A stretch of 64,000 nucleotides of DNA from an uncultured Acidimicrobiia bacterium (lineage in GTDB: Bacteria; Actinomycetota; Acidimicrobiia; UBA2766), in contig CAYJLW010000013.1 in the NCBI GenBank assembly GCA_964370965.1, positions 5,696-69,695 of the forward strand, written 5' to 3'. Positions 1 through 12,766 of the stretch are shown here, piece by piece. The first letter of the stretch is position 1. Each line of letters starts with the position of its first letter. A model generated the notes under the pieces. That model worked only from the letters and a program-made list of their open reading frames with translations. It had not been told where the DNA came from and searched no databases. The translations under genes and the position numbers were made by a program.

Positions 1-194
1 GCTCCCCGGAACGGGGGGCTCGCCACCGTAGTTGCGGAACGCCAGGAGGACGAGCACGAAGAAGCCGAAGACGAAGACGAGGAGGGTGGCCTGCACCCAG
101 CCCTTTGCGATGATGAGCGGGCGCCGTTCCCCCCCGGCGGACGCCGACTCCGCCCCGGCAGACACCTGCTCCGCTTTCGCCGCCATCTCGCCCT
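1..194 (-). CDS. N-terminal part of a membrane protein of unknown function (partial, runs off the window start)
   Basis: Minus-strand ATG at 194-192 opens MAAKAEQVSAGAES...RRPLIIAKGWVQATLLVFVFGFFVLVLLAF, a hydrophobic helix after a charged N-terminus. GC3-rich codon usage. No family recognised. Confidence 0.3.
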
Positions 195-233
195 CCAGTT
201 CGGCCACGGAGGGAGCCCAGCTCTCCCGGCGCG

Positions 234-1904
234 TCAGCCTAGGCCCGCCTGCGCCATCGCCAGCGTCACCGGTGAGCAGATCTTGGGGTCTATGACGGCG
301 TTGATGCAGGCGGGCAGCCCGGAGGCGAGGGCACGCTCGATCGCGGGGCGGAGCTCGGCGGGATCCTGGACCTCTTCCCCGTACCCCCCCAGGGCCTTCA
401 CCATCTCGTGATAGGGCCGGTGGCCCAGCTCGGTGGCGACGAGGTGGTCGTAGCCGAACTGGATCCCCTGGCCGTGACGGGACATGCCCCAGGAGCCGTC
501 GTTGCCCACGAGGCAGACGATCGGGATCTCGTGGCGGACGGCGGTGTCGAACTCCATGGCGTTGAAGCCGAAGCTGCCGTCCCCCTCCACGAGGATCACG
601 GGGTGCTCGGGGCGGGCGAGCTTGGCGGCCAGGGCGAAGGGGATCCCGACGCCGAGGCAGCCCAGGTACGTCCCGGTGGACATGAGGCGGCCGGGGCCGT
701 GCGCGGGGAACGCCAGGAGTGCCCACGTCATGATGTCGCCCCCGTCGGCCACGAGCGTGGCGTCAGGGCCGGCCACCTCGGCGGCGGCCCTGACCAACTC
801 CAGGGGATGGATCGGCTTCGCCGCCAGCTCCCCGACGGAGGACAGGAGGTTGCGGCGGTTGGCCTCCGCCGCCCCCCTGAGACGGTCGCCCCAGGCCGAT
901 CGGGCGGCGCTCACGCCGCCCTCCCATGCGTCCGCGAGTTGGCGGCAGACGACCTTGGTGTCCCCGACGAGGCGGTGGTCTCCGGGGCGGTTCCGGGCGG
1001 TCTCGGCAGCGTCGAGATCGACTCGGATGATCGTCTTGCCGGCAAAGAGGTTCCCGTTCAGGAGCGTGAAGCCCAGGCGCACCCCCAGGCAGAGGACGAC
1101 GTCCGCGGCCATCGCCTCCCCGAACGCCCCCCCGATGGGCATCGGGAGCCCGAAGGACCACGGGTGCGCGTCGGGCAGGACGCCGCGCCCGGCGTTCACG
1201 GAGAACACGGGGAGGCCGGCGGTCTCGGCGAGGCGGGCCAGGGCGTCGCCGGCTCGCGACCAGTGGGCGCCGCTGCCCACGAGCACGATGGGACGCTCGG
1301 CGGCGGAGAGGACGGCGGCCACCTCGGCCACGGCATCCGGGTCGGCCCCGGGCGGGACGGCAAAGGCGACCGCGGGGGCCGCGGCGTCCTCGGGGACGGG
1401 GGTGGCGAGCACGTCGAAGGGAACGTCGAGGTAGACCGGGCCGGGCCGGCCGCTGCGGGCCTCGGCGAGGGCCGTCGCCGTGTACTCCCCCGCTCGACGC
1501 GCCGTGGCGCAGGACCGCGCCCACTTCGTGACGGGGCGGACCATGTCGAGCTGCGCGAGGTCCTGTAGCGGCCACGTGTCGGCCTCCCGCAGGGGCCGGG
1601 CACCGGCCAGGCAGAGGACGGGGCTGGAAGACATCTGGGCGTTCGCGAGCCCCGTGACCGCGTCGGAGATCCCCGGCCCGGCGGTGACGGCGCAGACGCC
1701 GGTCTCACCCGTGGCGAGCGCCCAGCCCTCGGCCATGTGTGCGGCAGCCTGCTCGTGACGGGTGTCCACGATGCGGAGGCCCTCCCTCTGGCAGGCGTAG
1801 AGGATGGGGTCGATGTGCCCACCGTGGAGACAGAAGAGGTGGTCGACACCGGAGGCCGCCAGCGTGCGGCCGACGAGGCGTCCTGCGTCGTGACGGTCGT
1901 ACAT
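234..1904 (-). CDS. thiamine-pyrophosphate-dependent enzyme (acetolactate synthase / benzoylformate decarboxylase family)
   Basis: 556 aa from ATG at 1904 (MYDRHD..., SD-like GGGGGACGAG upstream). N-terminal PYR domain (GVDHLFCLHGG, VTAGPG) and C-terminal TPP motif GDGSFGFNAMEFDT...NDG. The ORF-track start at 1988 is an upstream extension. Confidence 0.8.
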   Translation of the reverse strand: MYDRHDAGRLVGRTLAASGVDHLFCLHGGHIDPILYACQREGLRIVDTRHEQAAAHMAEGWALATGETGVCAVTAGPGISDAVTGLANAQMSSSPVLCLAGARPLREADTWPLQDLAQLDMVRPVTKWARSCATARRAGEYTATALAEARSGRPGPVYLDVPFDVLATPVPEDAAAPAVAFAVPPGADPDAVAEVAAVLSAAERPIVLVGSGAHWSRAGDALARLAETAGLPVFSVNAGRGVLPDAHPWSFGLPMPIGGAFGEAMAADVVLCLGVRLGFTLLNGNLFAGKTIIRVDLDAAETARNRPGDHRLVGDTKVVCRQLADAWEGGVSAARSAWGDRLRGAAEANRRNLLSSVGELAAKPIHPLELVRAAAEVAGPDATLVADGGDIMTWALLAFPAHGPGRLMSTGTYLGCLGVGIPFALAAKLARPEHPVILVEGDGSFGFNAMEFDTAVRHEIPIVCLVGNDGSWGMSRHGQGIQFGYDHLVATELGHRPYHEMVKALGGYGEEVQDPAELRPAIERALASGLPACINAVIDPKICSPVTLAMAQAGLG

Positions 1905-2000
1905 CTCGTCCCCCTGTCCCCTTGGCTCCTTGCGGCATCCGGCACGTCGCCGTCCGCCAATACCAGCAGCGCTTCCCGCCGACGGCAAGACGGGGCGACC

Positions 2001-2915
2001 TCAGGTGCCCAGAGTCACCGCCCTCACAGCGGCCGGCGCCCCCACGACGGCCGGGGTGAACGTCTCGCCGGCGTCCCTGCTCATCAGGACCTCACCCGCG
2101 GACGTACCGGCGACGACAAGGTCTCCCGAGGCGGCGAGGGCCTGGCGCTCGACGTTGCCGGCGAAGCCCTCGTGGACGAGACGCCAGCGCACCGGCTCGG
2201 CGTCGGCGTCGGCGACGAAGATCGCCGCCTCGGGGCCGCCGGCGTCCCACATCGGGGGCGGCCCGGACGCCGCCGACATCACGAGGCGCCCCCCGGCGAG
2301 GGCGAGGCCCTGGGAGTAGCCGCGGTCCACGCCGTCGGCCTGCCAGGCCCAGGAGCGGCCTTCGTCGCGGCTGCGGTAGAAACCGCCTCCCGTGGTGGCG
2401 TAGAGGTTCGTACCGTCTGCGACGACGTGGTGGACGTCCTCGTAGAGCCCGTCGTTGCGCGCCTCCCAGGTCTCCCCGGCATCGCTGGAGACGGCGACCC
2501 CGCCCACCTCGACGCCCACGACGAGGCGGTCGCCGTCGACGACGATGCTGCAGAGGTCGGCGGGCCCCCAGGGCGACTCCCACGACTCATGGCCCGCCAC
2601 CTTCTCCAGGCCGGCGAGCCCCTCGGCGCCGGCCGGGGTGACCCGCCAGATCGCCGCCGGCTCGAGGCCCACGAAGGCGGTGCCGTCGTCCGTGCCGGCG
2701 ACGGTCCAGATCGTCTCCCCGGTGAGGCCGAGGTGCTCCCACGCTCCTCCCGCCGGGCGCCGGTGGGCTCCCCCGCCTTCGACGGCGGCAAAGGTCCAGT
2801 CCCCGGCGACGCTCACGGCCACGACGGACTCGCCGGGGAAGTCGACGCTCCGCTCCCCACCGGGATCCCTGAGCGTGACGAGCCCGTCCCCGGTTGCCAA
2901 CAGTATGTGCGCCAT
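2001..2915 (-). CDS. BNR/Asp-box repeat beta-propeller protein (Ycf48-like)
   Basis: 304 aa from ATG at 2915 (MAHILLATGDG). Repeated S-x-D-x-G-x-T-W/F motifs (SSDAGETW, SRDEGRSW, SRDAGETF). Confidence 0.7.
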   Translation of the reverse strand: MAHILLATGDGLVTLRDPGGERSVDFPGESVVAVSVAGDWTFAAVEGGGAHRRPAGGAWEHLGLTGETIWTVAGTDDGTAFVGLEPAAIWRVTPAGAEGLAGLEKVAGHESWESPWGPADLCSIVVDGDRLVVGVEVGGVAVSSDAGETWEARNDGLYEDVHHVVADGTNLYATTGGGFYRSRDEGRSWAWQADGVDRGYSQGLALAGGRLVMSAASGPPPMWDAGGPEAAIFVADADAEPVRWRLVHEGFAGNVERQALAASGDLVVAGTSAGEVLMSRDAGETFTPAVVGAPAAVRAVTLGT

Positions 2916-3033
2916 GGGCTCCCTTTCGAGCGTCGTCCGCGTCGAGAACGGTAGTGGCGTCTCCCTGGGTGGGTGCCACCGATCTCGGGAGCCGGGGTCC
3001 CCCGATCCGGGTCTGCGTTCCCGCAACCGTCCG

Positions 3034-4095
3034 TCAGGCCGGCAGGCCGGGTTCGATGACGATGCGCTGTACGTCGCCTCCGCCTGTGCGGAGCATCTCG
3101 AGTCCCTCGGCCGTCTTCTCCAGCGGGAAGCGGTGCGTGATGGAGCCCTCGATGTCGATCTTCCCCTCGGCCTCCATGCGGAGCACCTCCACGAGGTCCT
3201 CCTCGTGGGAGGCGAACGTGCCGATCACGGAGAGCTCGAAGACCGAGAACAACGCCTGGGGGAGGTCGATGCGGGGGGGCATCATGCCCACGCCCACGGT
3301 GAGGCAGCGACCCCCGCCCACGAGGGAGTTCACGGCTTGGGCGACCGTGTCGGGGACACCCACGCACTCGAGGACGACGTCGGCGCCCTCGCCGGTGGCG
3401 GCCCGGATGCCCCCGACGGGGTCGGCGCTGCCGGCGAGGACCACGTCGGTGGCCCCGAGACGCCGGGCCCGTTCCAGGGCGGCGGGGTTGGTGTCGACGG
3501 CGACGACCTGGCCGGCGCCGAGCACCCCGGCCAGGGCCACGGCCATGGAGCCGAGGCCGCCCACGCCGATGACGGCGACCTTCTCGCCCTCTCTCATTCC
3601 CGCCCGGCACTTGAGGGCGTGGTACGGGGTGGCGACGCAGTCCGTGGCCACCGCCGCCGCCGCCAGGGACACCTCGTCCGGGACGCGCACGAGCGCCGAA
3701 TGCGGCACCCGGACGGCTTCGGCGTAGGCGCCGTCGAAGTGCAGACCGACCGCGCCGAGGCGCGGGCAGGACATGGGGTGTCCTGTGGTGCAGGCCCGGC
3801 ACTGCCCGCAGCCGTCGCCGAGGTGCATCGCCACGCGGTCGCCCACCGCCCACCCGGTGACGCCCTCCCCCAGCGTCTCGACGACACCGGCGGGTTCGTG
3901 GCCGAGGATGAGCGGGAGCGGGCCCAGCACCGGCATACCTTCGAGGACGTGGACGTCGGAGTGGCACACCCCACATGCCGCCACGCGCACGACCACGTCG
4001 CCCGGCCCCGGTTCGGGGTAGGGCACCTCGTCGAGGACGAGCGGGGTCCCGGGGGCGTGCGTGCGCACGGCGCGCATCGTGGACGGGTTCGACAT
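3034..4095 (-). CDS. zinc-dependent alcohol dehydrogenase (MDR family)
   Basis: GHEPAGVV catalytic-zinc motif, CGQCRAC structural-zinc motif, GVGGLG Rossmann motif. AT-rich promoter region upstream with a CTAGC-N7-GCTAG palindrome at 4132-4148. Confidence 0.85.
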   Translation of the reverse strand: MSNPSTMRAVRTHAPGTPLVLDEVPYPEPGPGDVVVRVAACGVCHSDVHVLEGMPVLGPLPLILGHEPAGVVETLGEGVTGWAVGDRVAMHLGDGCGQCRACTTGHPMSCPRLGAVGLHFDGAYAEAVRVPHSALVRVPDEVSLAAAAVATDCVATPYHALKCRAGMREGEKVAVIGVGGLGSMAVALAGVLGAGQVVAVDTNPAALERARRLGATDVVLAGSADPVGGIRAATGEGADVVLECVGVPDTVAQAVNSLVGGGRCLTVGVGMMPPRIDLPQALFSVFELSVIGTFASHEEDLVEVLRMEAEGKIDIEGSITHRFPLEKTAEGLEMLRTGGGDVQRIVIEPGLPA

Positions 4096-4393
4096 GTTCC
4101 CTCTTCCGCCTGCGAAAGATGTTGCACTACACTAGCAATCATCGCTAGGAAAACAAGCTTTAGGACCCCGCGAGACTGCGCCCGGCCTGCTTCGGTCAGG
4201 GGGCCGCTCGGGCCCCCTGACGAGACCACCGAGATCACGCTCGGAAGCGAGCAAGTCGTCGACATCGGCGGGATGCCCTCAACAGGGGATACTCGGGTAG
4301 ACACGGGTGTGGGCGGCCTGTCGCGGCTTCGGGTGCGACACGCTCCAGCGCCCGAAAGAACCCGCTTGCCAGCTTCCAGGCCAGGAGGTCGCG

Positions 4394-5524
4394 TCAGCCC
4401 CGCGAGTCCTGATCATCCGAGGGTCCACCTACGGCCTGATGCAGCCACGCCGTCAGGAAGTCCTCGCCGTGCTCCGACGCCTCTTCCTCAAAGGCTCCTG
4501 CTATCTCGGCCACCACGCTCTGAAACTCGTAGCCGACCACCTCGGCCGCGGCTCTGAAAGCGCGCTGATACACCCGCAGGAGCAACTCGGGCCCGACCTT
4601 GCTCTGCGTTAGTTCGTTGAGAGCCGTGCGGCCAACCACGACAGCGGTTGCCGGGGAGGCTCGCAGGACTGCGCCCTTCGAGCGATGTCCCTTTAGGGTG
4701 TTGCCGACAATGGCGGCGTAGAAGGTCCGGGCGCCCCACACCTCCTCCAACGCACGTAGCTGGTCACCGAGCCGCTTACCGTCCCCGCCCTTGGCCGACC
4801 CGGTCTTGCTCTTGATCTGAAACAGACGAATGCGCTCAGGCTCCTCAAGACTCGGCACTTGGCCGACATCTGCGCCAGGAAACGGATTCATGACAGGATC
4901 CAAAGTCTCCTTGACACCACCCTTCCCCCGAGGCTCAGGAATCCGAAAGTTGCCTCGCATAGCGCCCAAGATCTCTTGGTGAAGATTTCCGACAAGGTCC
5001 TCAATCTTCATCAAAATCTTATGGGATGTCGTGCTCTCGATTGTACGACCAAGATCACGTCCGCTGAGCAATTCAAAATTAGCCGAAAGGATGAACGGAT
5101 CCAGCACATCGCCCGGGTTACTTCCGCGGCGCAAACTGTCTGCTGATGCAGGGAACTGGCGGACTACGTCAATAACGATGCGGGCAAGGAATGCAGTTGC
5201 GCGCTCCGGGTCTGAGAAGGCGCGGCAGAGCTGTATCTGATCGGCCAATGCCTCGGCCATGCCGGTACCGGCGGACAATTCCGAGGCCAGCGCACCCAAG
5301 AGGTCGCTGTGGGCCATGTTTCCGAGTTCCAGAGCGCTCCAGTCGCTCGAAAATGGAAACCGGATCGCCCTGGTCGAAATCTTCAGGTCCGTACACGCCT
5401 TATTGAATAAGTCCACGGCCGCAGCATTTCGCAGCCACTTCAGGTCATCGCTGGCTCGGCGAATCTCATCGACAAGATCCGGGGCGAGCCCCTCAAAAGC
5501 GCCGGTGAGCCAATCGGCATTCAA
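4394..5524 (-). CDS. putative type II restriction endonuclease (partner of the C5 methyltransferase)
   Basis: 376 aa. The start (TTG at 5524) overlaps the methyltransferase stop (TGA 5523-5521). Lies immediately downstream of the M gene inside the low-GC island. No recognised family motifs, so the call is inference from context. Confidence 0.45.
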   Translation of the reverse strand: MNADWLTGAFEGLAPDLVDEIRRASDDLKWLRNAAAVDLFNKACTDLKISTRAIRFPFSSDWSALELGNMAHSDLLGALASELSAGTGMAEALADQIQLCRAFSDPERATAFLARIVIDVVRQFPASADSLRRGSNPGDVLDPFILSANFELLSGRDLGRTIESTTSHKILMKIEDLVGNLHQEILGAMRGNFRIPEPRGKGGVKETLDPVMNPFPGADVGQVPSLEEPERIRLFQIKSKTGSAKGGDGKRLGDQLRALEEVWGARTFYAAIVGNTLKGHRSKGAVLRASPATAVVVGRTALNELTQSKVGPELLLRVYQRAFRAAAEVVGYEFQSVVAEIAGAFEEEASEHGEDFLTAWLHQAVGGPSDDQDSRG

Positions 5525-6816
5525 CGTACTCGACGGTTGCGCGCGGCTGCACGAACCTTCCGTACGGCGATGGCTAGCAGCCCATCCTCGTCCTGAGGAT
5601 GGGGCGCAGCAGGTCTAGCGCCTGACATGGCCTCGGCGACGCTCCGCCCAGCTGCCATTCCGAGCGCCATGGGGACTGCGTTGCCGATCTGGACATAGTG
5701 CTGGTTCATCGATCCCGAGAATCTCCAATCATCAGGAAAACCCTGCAGCCTCGCGCACTCTCGAACCGAGAGTGGTCGGGTGTCCTGCGGATGACAGAGC
5801 GCAGAGCCCTTCCGATTCGCTTTACCCGTGATTGTCGGCGCGGGCTCATCCCAACTCAGGCGACGAAAGAACCCCGTCTTCCCACCGCCAGCCGCGTAGC
5901 TTCGTTCTCCCATGGCACGCCGAGCAATATCCGTCGGCAGAGATCGCCAGTTGCCGCCAGGCGGTACTAGATCGAAGACCCGGGCCACGTTGGGGGTATA
6001 TTGCGACCCTGGTCCGGGGTCACTGATGAGGTCTGCAATCGCGTCCTTGAGGGTGACAAAGCCCAAGCTTGATCTTGGTCCATGCGTGACTTGGGGCAAA
6101 GCTGGCGCTCCCTCGTCCCGTGATCCAAGCATTAGGAATCGAAGTCGCTTTTGCGGTGCGCCCAATTCTGAGGAATCGAAGACTCCGAAGGTAACGGCAT
6201 AACCTAACCCGGCGACCGCTGTGTCCAGCAAGAAACGCATCGCTGATCCAGACAGCTCGTCTTCTGCCAAAGGATGTGCGCCTCCGACTTCAGCCGGAAA
6301 GAGGGACGCCTGATCACGGCCGTATCTGGAGAGGTTCCAATGCTTCCCGGGCCGCTCATCGATAGGACGATGTCGAAGCGCTGCAGTCACCAAGTTGGCG
6401 ACATTCTCTAGAATGAAGAATCGCGGGCGGACTTCAGATATGAGGCGAAGATATTCAAGGATTAGGTTTCCCCGAGGATCAGAGAGAGCGGCCCGCTTCC
6501 CACCCGGACAAAAGCTCTGGCATGGGGGGCCGCCCACCATCAGGTCAACCTCGCCCGTTCCGCGGCTAGCGGCCGCCAGGTCTCGGCCGGAGAGCGATGC
6601 AACGTCCGCCTGGAGAACACTCAGGTTGGGCCGGTTGCCACGGATGGTCTCAACGAAGACTGGCTCGATCTCGACAGCCAACTCCGGAGCGAGGCCTATC
6701 GCCTCCAAGCCCAGATCGAGGCCCATCGCACCTGTGAACAAGGACCAGACTCTCGACACCCTTGACCTCTGGCGTCCGTCGGGGCAAGTCGTGAGCGTAC
6801 AGCGCCGGGATCCCAC
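5521..6816 (-). CDS. DNA (cytosine-5)-methyltransferase
   Basis: Motif I LFTGAMGLDLG, motif IV GGPPCQSFCPGG, motif VI ENV, motif X QIGNAVP, and a variable target-recognition domain between them. GTG start at 6816. Confidence 0.9.
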   Translation of the reverse strand: MGSRRCTLTTCPDGRQRSRVSRVWSLFTGAMGLDLGLEAIGLAPELAVEIEPVFVETIRGNRPNLSVLQADVASLSGRDLAAASRGTGEVDLMVGGPPCQSFCPGGKRAALSDPRGNLILEYLRLISEVRPRFFILENVANLVTAALRHRPIDERPGKHWNLSRYGRDQASLFPAEVGGAHPLAEDELSGSAMRFLLDTAVAGLGYAVTFGVFDSSELGAPQKRLRFLMLGSRDEGAPALPQVTHGPRSSLGFVTLKDAIADLISDPGPGSQYTPNVARVFDLVPPGGNWRSLPTDIARRAMGERSYAAGGGKTGFFRRLSWDEPAPTITGKANRKGSALCHPQDTRPLSVRECARLQGFPDDWRFSGSMNQHYVQIGNAVPMALGMAAGRSVAEAMSGARPAAPHPQDEDGLLAIAVRKVRAAARNRRVR

Positions 6817-7014
6817 AACGGTGGATGGGGCGCCTCCCCCCTGGCTGTCATAAGGCTGACGTGAGACACGTGTTGTAGCCCGCTATCTGTCGGGGCGAGA
6901 CCAGGACAGCGTGGAGCCCCATGTCGCCCCTTCGCCACCGCAGGAAACGGGACCCAATCCCCTCGGCCGACAGACGGCCAGCCGCGTCATGTAGAGGGCG
7001 CTCTCGATCGGGCG

Positions 7015-7440
7015 TTACCCCCTGACCACGTCCACGGACACGCAGCGGTCGAAGCGGACGGGCTGCCACTCCATGGGGGCGTACTGGAGGTGGTCGTAGC
7101 CGTCGACGAGGTGGAGCCACTTCACCATCCCGACCTCGACCTCGTTGGGGCCCTTGCCCCCCGGGGATCATGTAGTCCTCGTAGCCGTTGGAGACCGTCA
7201 GGGCGCCCGGACGCCACGTCGGGCTCGTGTGCAGGTTCACCCGAAAGTCGCCCACGTCGTTCCAGACCCCCGCGGTGTCGTCGGCGATGTCGAGAGCGGC
7301 GGCGTCGTCGGGGTGGATGAGCTGCGGACGGTGTCGGGGTGCCCACCGGTCGCTCCGGCCACCCGCTCCGGGCGGCACTCGCTGTCGAGGAGCCGCCGCA
7401 CCCGGGCCAGGAGCGGCTCCACGGTGACCGTCGTGCCGTC
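7015..7440 (-). pseudogene. C-terminal remnant of a molybdopterin bis-MGD oxidoreductase, paralogous to the 3' end of the 27563-30508 gene
   Basis: The minus-strand translation LIHPDDAAALDIADDTAGVWNDVGDFRVNLHTSPTWRPGALTVSNGYEDYMIPGG / KGPNEVEVGMVKWLHLVDGYDHLQYAPMEWQPVRFDRCVSVDVVRG* aligns with VVVHPEDAAREGIADHQPVRVSNEAGSFVVRAKLSPTQRPGGVTVYSGWDGHQFPGW...PSLVKHLGLAAGYGHLRYGPMEWQPVPCDRPVAVDIEAVVEG of the full-length gene. A +1 frameshift at the C6 run 7157-7162 separates the two segments. There is no N-terminal 800 aa, because the region upstream is the crtI-like promoter. Confidence 0.55.
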
Positions 7441-7523
7441 GGCGGGGGCGTCGTCGGTGACACGGGCGTCACCGGTTGTGGCGGGGCCTAATCGCTGGAT
7501 ATATTGGCTATCAATACCCATGA

Positions 7524-9155
7524 GTGGGAACTCACTCTCCGGGGGGATGCACGTTGAGCACACTCACCTACGACGCCATCGTCATCGGGGCGGGACACAA
7601 CGGCCTGTGCCTCGCTGCCTACCTGCAACGGGCCGGCCTCAAGACCGTCGTCGTGGAACGGCGCCACGAGGAAGGAGGCGGCGCGAACACCGAAGAACCC
7701 GTGCTGACGGGCTTCCGTCACAACATGCACGCGCAGTACATGGAGTTCTTCGACGTCATGCCGATGGTCCGGGACTTCGGCCTGGAGGAGATCGGCCTGC
7801 GCACCGTCATGCCCGAGGCGCAGGCGGGCATCACGTTCGCCGACGGCCGACCCCCCGTCGTCCTCTACCGTCCCGACCTCAACGACCGCACGTACGAGTC
7901 CATCGCCCAGTATTCCAAGGCCGACGCCGAGCTCTACGTCGAGCTCAAAGCCCGGGCGATGAAGCTCGAGGCGCTCCTCGCCGCCGGCCTCTACAACCTG
8001 CCCTCGCCCCTGTCCGAGGACCAGGCGCCCATCGTGGAGATGGTCTTCGGGGACCTCGGCCTCACGAAGTACCACGCCACCAAGACCTGCAAGGTCCTCA
8101 TCGACGAGCTCTTCGAGACCTCCGAGCTGCGGGCGCTGCTGTACCGCACCTGCGTGGAGTGGGGCTTCCCCATCGACGACTGGGGCACCGCACCGGGCTG
8201 GCTCACGTTCATCATGTGGACCATGTCCAACTGGAAGCTCACCGTCGGGGGCACCCACACGCTGGCCAAGGCCATGATGCAGGCCTGCTACCGCGAGGGG
8301 GTCGACCTCATCGAGAACACCATGGTCGAGCGGGTCGTCGTGGAGGACGGCCGTGCCGGGGGGGTGGTCGCCCGGGGCCGTGAGATCCGGGCGACCAAGG
8401 TTGTGGCCTCCAACGCCGACCTGAAGCAGACCCTGCTCGACTTCGTGGGCGAGGACCACCTCTCGGAGCTGTGGGTGAAGAGGGCGAAGGCCTACCGCTA
8501 CGGCCCCAGCCACGTCCTGGGCACGCCGATGTTCTGCCTCTACGAAGCCCCCGAGTACAAGTCGGCGCGATGGAACCCAGACATCGACAAGACCTTCTAC
8601 ACGATGGTCGGCTTCGACGGCGCCGACGACACCGCCCGCTACATCCGCGACGCCTACAGCGGGACGATGCCCAAGCCGGCGGCCGGCATGTGGGTGAACA
8701 CCCTCTGGGACCCCCAGCAGGCCCCGGCCGGGCGACAGTCCGCCACCGGCTGGTACTTCCTCCCCCCGGCGAGCGCCCTGTCGAGCGAGGAATGGGCCGA
8801 CGTGCGGGCGACGTTCAACGAACGGTTCCTGTCGGTGTGGCGCCAACACGCCCCCAACATGACCCCGGCGAACGTGATCGCGCACAAGCTCTACACACCG
8901 GACCAGATGGAGCACAAGAACCTCATGCGCGAGGGGGACTTCTCCAACGGCGAGTTCGCCCCCGACCAGTTGGGTGCCAACAGGCCCTTCCCCGAGGCGT
9001 CCAACTACCGCACCGAGGTCGACGGCCTGTACCTGTGCGGCCCTTCGGCCTACCCGGGCGGCGGGGTCCACGCCGCCTGCGGCTACAACGCCTTCAAGGC
9101 GATCGCCGAGGACCTCGGGCTGCCCAGCCCCATCGTGGCCGAGAGGGGGTACTGA
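7524..9155 (+). CDS. CrtI/phytoene-desaturase-family FAD-dependent oxidoreductase (paralog A1)
   Basis: N-terminal dinucleotide-binding YDAIVIGAGHNGL...ERRHEEGGG. C-terminal family motif CGPSAYPGGGVHAACGYNA. Start is GTG at 7524, or TTG at 7554 behind a GGGGGGA SD-like run. Confidence 0.85.
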   Translation: MGTHSPGGCTLSTLTYDAIVIGAGHNGLCLAAYLQRAGLKTVVVERRHEEGGGANTEEPVLTGFRHNMHAQYMEFFDVMPMVRDFGLEEIGLRTVMPEAQAGITFADGRPPVVLYRPDLNDRTYESIAQYSKADAELYVELKARAMKLEALLAAGLYNLPSPLSEDQAPIVEMVFGDLGLTKYHATKTCKVLIDELFETSELRALLYRTCVEWGFPIDDWGTAPGWLTFIMWTMSNWKLTVGGTHTLAKAMMQACYREGVDLIENTMVERVVVEDGRAGGVVARGREIRATKVVASNADLKQTLLDFVGEDHLSELWVKRAKAYRYGPSHVLGTPMFCLYEAPEYKSARWNPDIDKTFYTMVGFDGADDTARYIRDAYSGTMPKPAAGMWVNTLWDPQQAPAGRQSATGWYFLPPASALSSEEWADVRATFNERFLSVWRQHAPNMTPANVIAHKLYTPDQMEHKNLMREGDFSNGEFAPDQLGANRPFPEASNYRTEVDGLYLCGPSAYPGGGVHAACGYNAFKAIAEDLGLPSPIVAERGY

Positions 9156-9156
9156 G

Positions 9157-9624
9157 ATGCCGGAGATCTACAGCGAGGGCTGGTACGAAGCCGTCGTCGA
9201 CACCATCAACACCAAGGTCGGGACCCTCTCGGAGAAGGACGTCCCCAAAGGCGTCTGGCACGCCGTCGTGGAGATCGTCGCCGACGGCAGGTCCCCGTAC
9301 GTGGCGGAGGGCGACACCCGTCGCTTCCTGATCCGCATCGACGGCGGCCGCTGCGCCTGGTACCGGGAGATCGACACCCCGAACCCCGAGGGCGTGGAGC
9401 TCGACTACCGCTTCGTGGGCCCCGCCGCCGCCTTCGACGGCATCGCCGCCGGCATCGTCGACCCCGTCGACGCCGCCCTCGACGGCACCGTGCGGGTGCG
9501 GGGCGACATGCGCTTCCTGATGCGCCAGGCGGAGCTCGTGAAGACGCTCCTTGAGGCCTACACGTCCGGGGTGGACACGGAATGGCCCGCCGGCCGCCCG
9601 CCCTACAACGGTGCCGCCGGCTGA
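9157..9624 (+). CDS. SCP2 sterol/lipid-carrier-domain protein
   Basis: 155 aa. The ATG lies 1 nt after the A1 stop. C-terminal GDMRFLMRQAELVKTL is an SCP2-like helix motif. Confidence 0.7.
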   Translation: MPEIYSEGWYEAVVDTINTKVGTLSEKDVPKGVWHAVVEIVADGRSPYVAEGDTRRFLIRIDGGRCAWYREIDTPNPEGVELDYRFVGPAAAFDGIAAGIVDPVDAALDGTVRVRGDMRFLMRQAELVKTLLEAYTSGVDTEWPAGRPPYNGAAG

Positions 9625-9676
9625 GCCCGGCTGCCCCCTGCATTGGCAGTTCCCGTGCGAGTGAAAGGTCCTGGGG

Positions 9677-11272
9677 ATGCGTGACAGCTACGACGTGATC
9701 ATCGTGGGGGCGGGTCACAACGGCCTCACCCTCGGCTGCTACCTGGCGCGGGCCGGTCTCGACGTCCTGGTGCTGGAGCGCCGCCACGAGGAAGGCGGCG
9801 GCCTCTGCACAGAGGAGGTCACCCAGCCGGGGTTCCTGCACAACATCCACGCCAACTACCACACCTTCGTCGACCTGGCACCGCCCGTGAACGATCTCGA
9901 GGTGCGCGCGCACGGCGCCGAGTACGTGCGGCCCGAGGTGCAGATGGCGTCCCTCTACCCGGACGGCACGGCGCTCACCATCCACACCGACATGGACAAG
10001 ACGCAGGCGTCCATGGCCCGCTTCTCGGAACGGGACGCCGAGACCTTCGGCCGCCTCCACCGGGAGGCACACGGCTACATCGACCTCCTCCTGGGCACCC
10101 TCATGTACCAGCCGCCCATGTCGGTCAAGGAGCTCACCAAGGCGCTGGCGTCCTTCGGCGTCGAGGACCGCTCGGAGTTCCTGTCCGTGAAGCTCCGCCG
10201 CGAGTCGATCAACCAGTTCCTCGACCGCCACTTCGAGAGCGACAAGGTCAAAGCGCACCTCGCCTTCCACGGGGCCGTGTGCTCGTACACCAACGACGTC
10301 CCGGGCCTGGCGATCGGCTACCCGCTCCTGATCGGCAAGATCAGCAACTGGCACGTGTGCGTGGGCGGCTCGCACCGTCTCGCCCACGCCCTCTGGCGGG
10401 ACCTCGCCCAGCACGGCGGCACGATGGTGTCCTGTGCCGAGGTGTCCCGGATCCTCGTCGACGGCGGCCGTGCCGTCGGGGTGCGCCTCGCCGACGGCAC
10501 GGAGATCGCCGCCCGTCAGGCCGTCGCCTCCACGGTGTCGGTGGAGCAGACGTTCCTGGAGTTCCTCAACGCCTCGGCGACCTCGGAGGAGTTCACGCAG
10601 AAGGTCAAGACGGAGGTGCAGCACAAGGACTGGACGCTGTTCTCGGTGCACCTCGCCATGAACCGCTTCCCCGAGTACACGGCGGCGGCCTTCGACGAGG
10701 ACGTGAACCGGGCATGGGTCGTGAACCTGGGCTACGACAGCCTCGACGCCCTGAACGCCGACTGGGCCGCGATACGGGCGGGCGGCCTGCCCGAGCCGAG
10801 GCCCAACGCCGCGGTGAACAGCCTCTACGACCCCACCGACGCCCCCGCCGGATGCGCCACCGGACTCCTGCGCCAGTTCGCCCCCTTCGCCCTCGCCGAC
10901 GGCGGCGAGGGCGCCTGGGAGAAGGCGGGGCGCTGGTACGGCCAGCGTTGCATCGAGGCCTGGCGGGAGTACGCCCCGAACCTCACCGACGACGCCTTCG
11001 TCGAGTGGGCCGTGGACACCCCCCTCGACATCACCCGCAAGCTCCCCAACATGCCCCGGGGGGACTGGATGATGGGCGAGATCAGCCTGGACAACATGCT
11101 GGACGAGCGGCCCCTCCCGGAGCTCGGCCAGTACAAGACACCCGTGGAGCGCCTCTACATGGCGGGTTCCACGCAGCATCCCCACGGCTTCATAACGTTC
11201 GGCCCGGGCTACAACGCCCTCCAGGTGATCGCCGACGACCTCGGCGTCGACAAGTGGTGGCGCAAGATCTGA
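9677..11272 (+). CDS. CrtI/phytoene-desaturase-family FAD-dependent oxidoreductase (paralog A2)
   Basis: YDVIIVGAGHNGL...ERRHEEGGG; C-terminal AGSTQHPHGFITFGPGYNA. Confidence 0.85.
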   Translation: MRDSYDVIIVGAGHNGLTLGCYLARAGLDVLVLERRHEEGGGLCTEEVTQPGFLHNIHANYHTFVDLAPPVNDLEVRAHGAEYVRPEVQMASLYPDGTALTIHTDMDKTQASMARFSERDAETFGRLHREAHGYIDLLLGTLMYQPPMSVKELTKALASFGVEDRSEFLSVKLRRESINQFLDRHFESDKVKAHLAFHGAVCSYTNDVPGLAIGYPLLIGKISNWHVCVGGSHRLAHALWRDLAQHGGTMVSCAEVSRILVDGGRAVGVRLADGTEIAARQAVASTVSVEQTFLEFLNASATSEEFTQKVKTEVQHKDWTLFSVHLAMNRFPEYTAAAFDEDVNRAWVVNLGYDSLDALNADWAAIRAGGLPEPRPNAAVNSLYDPTDAPAGCATGLLRQFAPFALADGGEGAWEKAGRWYGQRCIEAWREYAPNLTDDAFVEWAVDTPLDITRKLPNMPRGDWMMGEISLDNMLDERPLPELGQYKTPVERLYMAGSTQHPHGFITFGPGYNALQVIADDLGVDKWWRKI

Positions 11273-11300: not shown

Positions 11301-11828
11301 ATGACGTCTGCAGCGACAACGGCCCCCACGGTCCGCCTGGACGCCGGTGAGGAGGCGTCCGGGCTCGCCATGATCCTCGGCGACCTCATCGAGTCGAACC
11401 TGCGGGACTTCCCCGGCCGACGCCGGGTGGCATCCACGTCCCGGGGCGAGATCGTCCTGTCCGCGTCCGACCGGGACGTCTCGGTGACCCTCTCCTTCCG
11501 GGGAGACGAGATCGTCATCTCCGAGGGCGCCCTCGACACGGCCCCGGCCCTGCGCGGAGCCTGGCTCGAGATGGCCGCCGTCTGCAGCGGCCGCCTGAAC
11601 CCCCTGCGGGCGATGGCCCAGGGCAAGCTCAGCGTCGCCCTGCGCCGCAGCCCCGCCCTCGTCGCCGCCACCGGCTTCGTCCTCTCTGTGCCCGAGTCGT
11701 TCTACGAGGACGACGCGGAGACCGCCGCCCGGCGTCGTCGCCAGGCCCTTGTCGTCGGTGCGGGTGTGGCCGCCGCCGCGACCGGCGTGGGAGTCGCCGT
11801 CTACGCCCGACGCCGGAGCTCCCCATGA
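11301..11828 (+). CDS. SCP2-domain protein with C-terminal membrane anchor
   Basis: MILGDLIESNL...RGAWLEMAAVCSGRLNPLRAMAQGKLSV is an SCP2-like fold signature. C-terminal VVGAGVAAAATGVGVAVY is a hydrophobic helix. RBS GGAGAGAG. Confidence 0.6.
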   Translation: MTSAATTAPTVRLDAGEEASGLAMILGDLIESNLRDFPGRRRVASTSRGEIVLSASDRDVSVTLSFRGDEIVISEGALDTAPALRGAWLEMAAVCSGRLNPLRAMAQGKLSVALRRSPALVAATGFVLSVPESFYEDDAETAARRRRQALVVGAGVAAAATGVGVAVYARRRSSP

Positions 11829-12766
11829 GCGCACCCTCCCTTGTCGTGCTCTGCGGGGGCCTCGGCGGCGCCCGCCTCGCCCTGGCGCTCCAGAGCGCCG
11901 GGGCCGCCGACGAGACCCTGTTCGTGACGAACGTCGCCGACGACGTCGAGGTGGGCGGACTCCTCGTCTGCCCCGACACCGACGCCGTCATCTACGCCCT
12001 CGCCGGCCGCTTCGACGAGGAGCGGGGCTGGGGCGTGCGGGGCGACGCCTTCCCGGGGGCCCGCCCCGGGGAACCCCCCTGGTTCAACCTGGGCAAGGCC
12101 GACCGCGCCCACCACGAACGGCGCCGGGAGCTCCTCGCCTCGGGCCTCACCCTGGGGGCGGCCACGCAGGTGCTCGCCGGGGACCTCCGGGTGCGGGCCG
12201 CGGTGCGTCCCGCCACAGACCAGCCCGTGCGCACCCGGGTCCGCACGGACACGGGCTGGCTGGGCTTCCAGGAGTGGCTCGTACGGGAACGCGCGCAACC
12301 CCCCGCCCGCGACGTCGTCTACGCCGGCATCGAGGCGGCGAAGCCAGACCCGGACACCCTCGACGCCCTCGGCGACGCCGATCTCGTCGTCCTCGCCGCC
12401 TCCAGCCCGGTGGCGTCGCTGCGGCCCACCCTCGCCCTGCGGGGTGTGCGCCGGGCCCTCACCCGTCGCCGCCGGCCCACGGTGGCGATCAGCCCGGTCA
12501 CCGGCCGACCCCTCGTCACCGACCGCGACCGACGCCGCTCCCAGGCCCGCGCCGCTCTCCTCGCGGCCGTGGGTGTCGCCCACGACCCCGCCGCCGTCGC
12601 CGGCCTCTACCGGGGCCTCGCCGACCGCTTCCTCCTCGACCCCGCCGACGCCCACGCCGCCCGGGCGGTCGCCGACCTCGGCCTCCAGCCCGTCGTCGCC
12701 CCCACCGTGGCCGAGACCATCTGGGAGCGGGCGAGGCTCGCCGACGTCCTCCTTTCGATGGCTTAG
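11825..12766 (+). CDS. cofD: 2-phospho-L-lactate transferase (F420 biosynthesis, CofD/FbiA)
   Basis: VVLCGGLGGARLALAL, NVADDVEVGGLLVCPDTDAVIYALAG, WFNLGKADRAHHERR, GFQEWLV and DADLVVLAASSPVASL match CofD/FbiA hallmark blocks. The start overlaps the SCP2-TM stop by 4 bp. Confidence 0.8.
   Translation: MSAPSLVVLCGGLGGARLALALQSAGAADETLFVTNVADDVEVGGLLVCPDTDAVIYALAGRFDEERGWGVRGDAFPGARPGEPPWFNLGKADRAHHERRRELLASGLTLGAATQVLAGDLRVRAAVRPATDQPVRTRVRTDTGWLGFQEWLVRERAQPPARDVVYAGIEAAKPDPDTLDALGDADLVVLAASSPVASLRPTLALRGVRRALTRRRRPTVAISPVTGRPLVTDRDRRRSQARAALLAAVGVAHDPAAVAGLYRGLADRFLLDPADAHAARAVADLGLQPVVAPTVAETIWERARLADVLLSMA

Follow-up and report, generated by a model that had tools for sequence, protein, structure and literature searches.

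The window analysed here, that is, the whole stretch of 64,000 nucleotides (nt) from an uncultured Acidimicrobiia bacterium (contig CAYJLW010000013.1), very probably carries a self-contained, horizontally acquired, orthodox (IIP-like) Type II restriction-modification (R-M) cassette, in which a C5-cytosine methyltransferase (M, gene and protein) is coupled to a nuclease of the PD-(D/E)XK type, a protein of 376 amino acids (aa) hereafter named R. The two genes are adjacent, separately encoded, on the same strand and overlapping by 4 nt, as is characteristic of an orthodox Type II system, and in a predicted model R displays a nuclease fold with its putative catalytic residues intact. M was identified by its profiles and motifs, the composition of the cassette departs sharply from that of its surroundings, and the M-R pair recurs across bacterial phyla with a set of invariant residues in R.

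With these elements, the following mode of operation can be proposed. M would methylate, and so protect, the DNA of the host. Translation of R would re-initiate at the overlap between both genes, such that the nuclease would be made only after M and in step with it. R, probably a dimeric PD-(D/E)XK restriction endonuclease, would cut unmethylated incoming DNA at the site common to M and R, and the cut would most likely leave a 3-nt 5′ overhang, as do those of EcoO109I, AvaII and their relatives.

The methyltransferase and its coupling to R

The assignment of M to the C5-cytosine DNA methyltransferases, already made in a first-pass annotation of the window, was borne out by matches above the cut-offs to PF00145 (E-value 3.6e-51) and TIGR00675 (E 3.5e-46). 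The best model for M in PADLOC was MTase_II (E 3.8e-83), and M.HaeIII was its top match among the sequences of the Protein Data Bank (PDB). The translation contains motifs I (LFTGAMGLDLG), IV (GGPPCQSF), VI (ENV), VIII (QKRLRF), IX (RPLSVRECARLQGFPD) and X (GNAVP), which read as the complete catalytic set of such an enzyme. Concerning the start of M, gene callers run on identical contigs chose the GTG at 6759, and motif I comes directly after it; so, the true start is most likely GTG 6759, giving a protein of 412 aa, and not GTG 6816.

The same annotation had described a TTGA-coupled gene pair, and indeed both open reading frames (ORFs) were found on the minus strand, with the TTG start of R and the TGA stop of M overlapping, as can be read directly in the letters (Table 1). 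The overlap is what would be expected of translational coupling in which M is translated first.

The cassette was found with identical sequence on more than 20 contigs of one study, in none of them with a stop codon in either gene, and it is fixed in its population. The gene calls made on this DNA were not uniform: between the ENA contigs (L061–L063) and the Logan contigs (L064–L069), which share the same DNA, M was called with 339 or 412 aa and R with 165 or 376 aa. Those on the ENA contigs took internal ATG starts, which would conceal the R family from protein-level surveys. The existence of truncated population variants, as the 339-aa and 165-aa calls could be taken to indicate, was discarded, the DNA being the same as that of the window and the short calls being gene-caller artefacts.

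Composition of the cassette

The 2423-nt cassette has 60.5% GC versus a mean of 71.1% for the window, which is the lowest value among all the 2423-nt windows of the stretch, about 3.9 standard deviations under the mean. When run in 400-nt windows, the GC fraction was 0.53–0.63 over positions 4600–6800 and 0.70–0.78 on both sides. The GC content at third codon positions (GC3) was 0.62 for M and 0.68 for R, far below the 0.93 and 0.94 of the neighbouring genes of an alcohol dehydrogenase (ADH) and a flavin adenine dinucleotide (FAD)-dependent oxidoreductase. The sharp compositional drop of a low-GC island, as first described, is thus confirmed. Since its composition is unlike that of the window and the neighbours, the cassette can be considered, on compositional grounds, foreign and recently acquired by horizontal transfer.

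The R family, its predicted fold and its active site

No match to R was found in Pfam, NCBIfam, PADLOC or PHROGs; in particular, there was none to a non-nuclease family, the outcome named beforehand as the one that would speak against an endonuclease. Searches of PDB sequences with R as a single sequence and with two family profiles returned only chance matches, for example to designed helical repeats, and EcoO109I (1WTD) was not retrieved from them by phmmer or hmmsearch, even when E-values up to 10 were accepted. R is nonetheless far from alone. In public data, its homologues fall into at least 571 clusters when grouped at 90% identity, and every one of them that bears a name is a ‘hypothetical protein’. 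An exhaustive hidden Markov model search of 1.84 billion representatives delineated a compact family with 113 matches, mostly fragments and about 25 of them of full length (clusters at 50% identity); the family extends over six or more phyla. Nothing beyond the family, and no bridging relatives, appeared in that search, and no R homologue was found in a plasmid collection. The link to other families came instead from Pfam scans of the most divergent members of the R family, which pointed to RE_Eco47II, as described below.

The predicted fold of R matches EcoO109I over nearly its full length, including the helical part responsible for dimerisation. The secondary structure runs through a long helix (158–188), three strands, the third of them at 233–240, a helix and a strand, an order that in the model is that of the canonical PD-(D/E)XK core. 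In an alignment of 28 sequences reaching down to 28% identity, the invariant residues were H168, M172, E175, H182, E197, D219, Q236 and K238. D219 sits in the motif PFPGAD, and Q236 and K238 in FQ(I/V)KSKTG (LFQIKSK in the window protein); position 183 is Q in the window protein and E in most of its relatives. From these data, we infer a catalytic set formed by D219, by Q236 where an acidic residue would be usual, and by K238, the second metal ligand being provided by position 183 or by the invariant E175. A PD...(D/E)xK arrangement had been suspected around the segment DPVMN. Its (D/E)xK element is indeed recognisable in LFQIKSK, as Q236-I-K238, but the aspartate would be D219 and not the D209 of DPVMN, since the latter is not conserved.

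That the (D/E)xK position is occupied by glutamine does not amount to a defect, because crystal structures of AvaII show the corresponding Q161 among the ligands of the catalytic metal, along with D147, K163 and, from the helix, E123 (PMC7337904). The comparison of R with AvaII was made through plasmid-borne enzymes of the SinI family, which are close AvaII homologues (E 4.9e-73 to 6G3B). In hhalign alignments, D219, Q236 and K238 of R fell on D147, Q161 and K163 of AvaII with a constant register, position 183 fell on E123, and H168, M172 and E175 fell on residues that are equally invariant in the SinI family. EcoO109I offers another departure from the usual site, as the (D/E)xK position is not acidic in its EPD-XXK arrangement (E108, D110, K126) (PMC3424549).

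So, the proposal that the 376-aa protein is an endonuclease, which was advanced without any motif that could be ascribed to a known fold, is now sustained by the EcoO109I-like predicted fold, by invariant residues of the PD-(D/E)XK type and by the linkage to the methyltransferase dealt with next. The R family is a widespread one with neither a public profile nor a name, and on the basis of the predicted model it can now be assigned to the structural clade of EcoO109I and AvaII.

Linkage of M and R in other genomes

A survey in which one genome per species was scanned yielded 60 loci with an R homologue, distributed among Actinomycetota, Planctomycetota, Verrucomicrobiota, Acidobacteriota, Pseudomonadota, Bacteroidota and others. 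An orthologous M (51–69% identity) was present directly upstream of R and on the same strand in 59 of them. Clustering of the ORFs over the 60 loci showed that only M and R are conserved, with no third gene, and that the flanks differ everywhere. An NTGA overlap of 4 nt was found in 35 of the 55 evaluable loci and a 1-nt overlap in four more; in most of the others, both genes lie within 30 nt of each other.

The single locus with R and without M is that of Novosphingobium barchaimii LL02 (L051, 4898–6969), where a transposase gene of the IS3 insertion sequence family occupies exactly the place of M and the first 66 codons, approximately, of R have been lost. Elsewhere, two loci have a frameshifted R beside an intact M, and another two have M and R both broken; some of these decayed loci belong to long-read metagenome-assembled genomes (MAGs), in which sequencing errors are possible. 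This pattern of decay fits with a toxic R that would depend on M.

Alternative interpretations

Several points weigh against R being a restriction endonuclease. Its fold is supported by a predicted model and not by a solved structure, and no significant sequence match of R to any characterised nuclease was obtained. The glutamate of the EcoO109I EPD motif is missing from R, where the corresponding residues are G217-A218-D219. The hhalign alignments of R with AvaII and the SinI family were weak, with E-values of 0.004–0.05 and probabilities of 1–8% for the five family members compared. Finally, in one of the long-read MAGs (L029) M seems frameshifted and R intact, which is probably an assembly error. 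Some of these points could be accommodated by a protein with a nuclease fold that does not restrict DNA, be it a dead DNA-binding partner or regulator of M, or a decayed gene kept by chance: R carries glutamine both at its (D/E)xK position and at 183, where most relatives have glutamate, and it lacks sequence matches to characterised enzymes. Such a condition of R is nevertheless improbable, considering that the Q-x-K variant is active in AvaII (PMC7337904), that the putative catalytic residues are all invariant in a family that has diverged to 28% identity, and that the ORF is intact and identical throughout the contigs of its population. The patterns of loss, with R truncated or frameshifted either when M is lost or on its own, also suggest a constraint tied to M.

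A different kind of enzyme could be thought of if the substrate of R were methylated or mismatched DNA, R then being a Vsr-like nickase of T:G mismatches or a modification-dependent nuclease. Methyltransferases forming m5C often have a repair endonuclease alongside, so a Vsr gene beside one of them is to be expected, and no Vsr homologue was found in the 64 kb of the window. However, the fold predicted for R is, over nearly its full length, that of a dimeric Type IIP enzyme and not that of Vsr. Moreover, a genuine Vsr gene, immediately adjacent and placed either upstream and divergent or downstream, occurs in addition to the M-R pair in eight of the 60 loci (L009, L010, L012, L016, L029, L032, L038 and L044), and therefore R is not the equivalent of Vsr; a methyl-dependent R, on its side, would be self-destructive when coupled to a methyltransferase of identical site. 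A role of this kind for R thus looks very improbable. It is extremely improbable that M belongs to a larger, DISARM-like or Druantia-like defence system of several genes, with R as an accessory component. M scores high on the PADLOC models DruM and DrmMII (E 1e-71 to 1e-77), but these are generic C5-methyltransferase profiles and the Type II model scores best, R matches no PADLOC model, and over the 60 loci no conserved multi-gene neighbourhood (helicase, phospholipase D (PLD) or DUF1998-type genes) accompanies M and R. The neighbours in the window are metabolic genes of native composition. In summary, an orthodox Type II cassette with R as its restriction endonuclease is the interpretation that we favour, and the specificity is considered below in those terms.

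Recognition specificity

By analogy with related enzymes, the recognition site, which is as yet unproven, most likely has GGNCC/GGWCC as its core. Three independent leads, each of them weak by itself, are concordant in pointing to a core of this type. One comes from the structural relatives of R, as EcoO109I (RGGNCCY) and AvaII (GGWCC) are related to one another and both cut with a 3-nt stagger. Another is provided by the profile RE_Eco47II (PF09553), which was matched weakly by four of the five full-length members that diverge most within the R family and by three of 42 closer ones, with E-values from 1e-4 to 5e-2, always over the catalytic core (profile positions 22–147, approximately, of 202). 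The repeated matching of one and the same region suggests remote homology rather than membership. Eco47II cuts GGNCC (PMC10305163).

The third lead concerns the nearest relatives of M encoded in plasmids (33–41% identity). Among the nine that were inspected, five were paired with a nuclease of the SinI family and one with a nuclease of the TdeIII family; TdeIII recognises GGNCC too. All these methyltransferases align with the window M across the target-recognition region with few and short gaps. The two closest plasmid relatives of M have unannotated partners. In pRh5Ap-243 of Rhodococcus pyridinivorans (L144, 2968–5366), a relative of M with 41% identity stands beside a convergent gene for a 358-aa hypothetical protein, next to IS21, and in an Agrobacterium plasmid (L146, 2977–6273), another with 39% identity is partnered by a small ORF and an AAA ATPase. 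The 358-aa protein was considered as a possible relative of R and discarded, because it was not detectably related (hhalign probability 0.7%). The partner proteins of these two loci may be further unannotated restriction partners.

Other data count against these leads, above all against a simple GGWCC site. The best match to RE_Eco47II reached 22.2 bits (E 1.2e-4), below the gathering threshold of 25.9, and the R of the window gave none. In the target-recognition region of M, the loop that follows PT(I/L) is GKANRKGSA in the group of the window enzyme versus SPxMPATS in the SinI-partnered enzymes, so a site other than GGWCC is quite possible. Within the part of the window that belongs to the host, sites of the GGNCC type were not notably depleted when compared with control palindromes: the ratios, none of them informative, were 0.85 for GGNCC, 0.84 for GGCC and about 1.0 for the 7-mers. 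The heptamer CGGWCCG, with 19 occurrences observed in the window versus 19.9 expected, was not depleted either.

CGGWCCG comes into consideration through another route. Corynebacterium variabile DSM 44702 carries, in its complete genome, a homologue of R with 54% identity, accompanied by its M. The species also goes by the synonym Caseobacter polymorphus, and it is the source of CpoI, a CGGWCCG-specific isoschizomer of RsrII. The literature on the R-M systems of C. variabile yielded nothing on the R-M locus of DSM 44702, and this lead is suggestive only.

It is possible, and we advance it just as a tentative idea, that the R family links EcoO109I, AvaII/SinI and Eco47II into a single clade of enzymes with GGNCC-core sites and 3-nt stagger, in which the size of R would reflect an extended, 7-bp site. 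If this were true, the 7-bp site would be either new or that of a commercial enzyme without a public profile, such as CGGWCCG (CpoI/RsrII).

Genomic context of the cassette

The features of the cassette and its surroundings are collected in Table 1. The M-R operon presumably has its promoter in the non-coding leader that precedes M; a scan of this leader for the sigma-70 consensus gave no match, although such a scan is uninformative for a host with 71% GC. No gene for a controller (C) protein was found in the window locus, and none is conserved among the 60 loci. Past the end of R, a hairpin with a 13-pair stem was obtained by minimum-free-energy folding. It was not called in a search for terminators with a T-run, which is uninformative in a high-GC context, and it is possibly a terminator devoid of U-tract.

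Table 1. Features of the M-R cassette and of its immediate neighbourhood (positions in the window)
Feature	Positions	Strand	Remarks
Low-GC tract of apparently foreign composition, holding M and R	4394..6816	none	Defined by GC and GC3
M, open reading frame	5521..6816	minus	431 aa counted from the first GTG
M gene, preferred start	5521..6759	minus	412 aa, GTG 6759
R gene	4394..5524	minus	376 aa, TTG start; putative PD-(D/E)XK Type II restriction endonuclease
TTGA overlap	5521..5524	minus	R start TTG shares letters with M stop TGA; read from sequence
Leader, non-coding, 5′ of M	6760..7015	minus	About 255 nt; AGAGG 6 nt before GTG 6759
GC hairpin GTCAGGGGGCC-CGAGC-GGCCCCCTGAC	4195..4221	minus	About 170 nt past the R stop, before the ADH promoter region
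Zinc-ADH gene	3034-4095		Gene and upstream region intact
Molybdopterin oxidoreductase remnant	6848-7378, other-frame continuation to about 7016	minus	PF01568, 27 bits, E 5e-6

The location of the cassette between the ADH gene and a decayed molybdoenzyme gene agrees with the initial description. The remnant corresponds to the molybdopterin dinucleotide-binding (C-terminal) domain, has native GC content, and shows a frameshift near position 7165, with roughly the last 120 codons surviving. It had been suggested that the insertion of the cassette was associated with the deletion of the rest of this gene. This was not supported, because the 3′ end of the remnant, which faces the cassette (stop near 7016), seems complete; what is missing of the gene is its 5′ portion, which would fall on the opposite side, in the interval from about 7380 to the divergent gene of the FAD oxidoreductase at 7524.

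No convincing direct or inverted repeats were found flanking the cassette, nor any mobility gene at the cassette, and the metagenomes searched with the ADH protein contained no empty-site comparator. The only close relative of the ADH in them was in L070 (79% identity), all the others having at most 40%. L070 combines a segment with 35–40% GC (1–6200), coding for DnaX, arginase and a tetratricopeptide repeat (TPR) protein, with another of about 70% GC (6250–9768); it is almost certainly a chimeric assembly, and hence gives no information on synteny.

Some other observations were made on the neighbouring genes. Just before the ADH gene, which starts at 4095, an AT-richer stretch contains an inverted repeat CTAGC-N7-GCTAG (4132–4148, minus strand), which may be an operator within the promoter region of this gene. 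On the other side of the cassette, two tandem paralogous genes of FAD-dependent (phytoene-desaturase-like) oxidoreductases (7524–9155 and 9677–11272, plus strand), each followed by a small ORF, precede a gene for CofD, of F420 biosynthesis (11825–12766). A population variant of this region (L062) differs from the window at 17 positions over the 6.2 kb compared, 15 of them being concentrated within 73 nt (8296–8368) inside the first FAD-oxidoreductase gene and the remaining two being at 8784 and 8822. The 8296–8368 tract looks like the result of a short recombination or gene conversion event, possibly with the paralogue at 9677–11272 as the source.

Implications

The novelty of these results is limited to the R family, which lacked both a name and a profile, as the R-M mechanism itself would be an ordinary one and the concepts of R-M function are unchanged by the cassette. 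Proteins so far labelled ‘hypothetical’ can now be named as putative Type II restriction endonucleases with EcoO109I-like fold and AvaII-like Q-x-K site, and with this name better counts of defence and R-M systems are to be expected in Actinomycetota, Planctomycetota, Verrucomicrobiota and other phyla. R is also a candidate gene for enzymes acting on sites with a GGNCC-type core. Concerning the host, m5C methylation of its DNA is predicted, which would affect the cloning of this DNA, the transformation of the organism and its methylation-aware sequencing.

Comparison with known systems

Among the systems considered are RsrII/CpoI (CGGWCCG), PpuMI and SanDI, enzymes for 7-bp sites with a GGWCC core and the same 3-nt stagger as AvaII and EcoO109I, which are likened to R as a lead only. 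With Eco47II (PF09553; GGNCC) the resemblance goes no further than the weak profile matches mentioned above: the proteins of that family have about 200–240 aa versus the 376 aa of R, which falls outside the profile.

EcoO109I (PDB 1WTD/1WTE), which recognises RGGNCCY, leaves a 3-nt 5′ overhang and also has a C5 methyltransferase as partner, shares with the predicted model of R the overall fold. The sequence identity between both proteins is 12–14%, with no detectable sequence homology, and R is longer by about 110 residues, mostly because of a poorly conserved, helical N-terminal extension. The active sites differ as well, since EcoO109I has a compensating E108 in its EPD motif and R has GAD in that place, so that the EPD-XXK arrangement is not found in R.

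AvaII and SinI (PF09570; GGWCC; AvaII structure 6G3B) are not matched by R at the profile level, as PF09570 recognised neither the window protein nor any of the 52 members of the R family that were scanned. On the other hand, they display, like R, a helix glutamate followed by an aspartate and then by Q-x-K, and also share with it the residues that flank the latter, LQ(I/V)K(N/S)(R/K); furthermore, methyltransferases related to the M of the window are the partners of SinI-family nucleases on plasmids. Judged by the predicted model and by the aligned residues, R is closest to EcoO109I in its fold and to AvaII in the chemistry of its active site.

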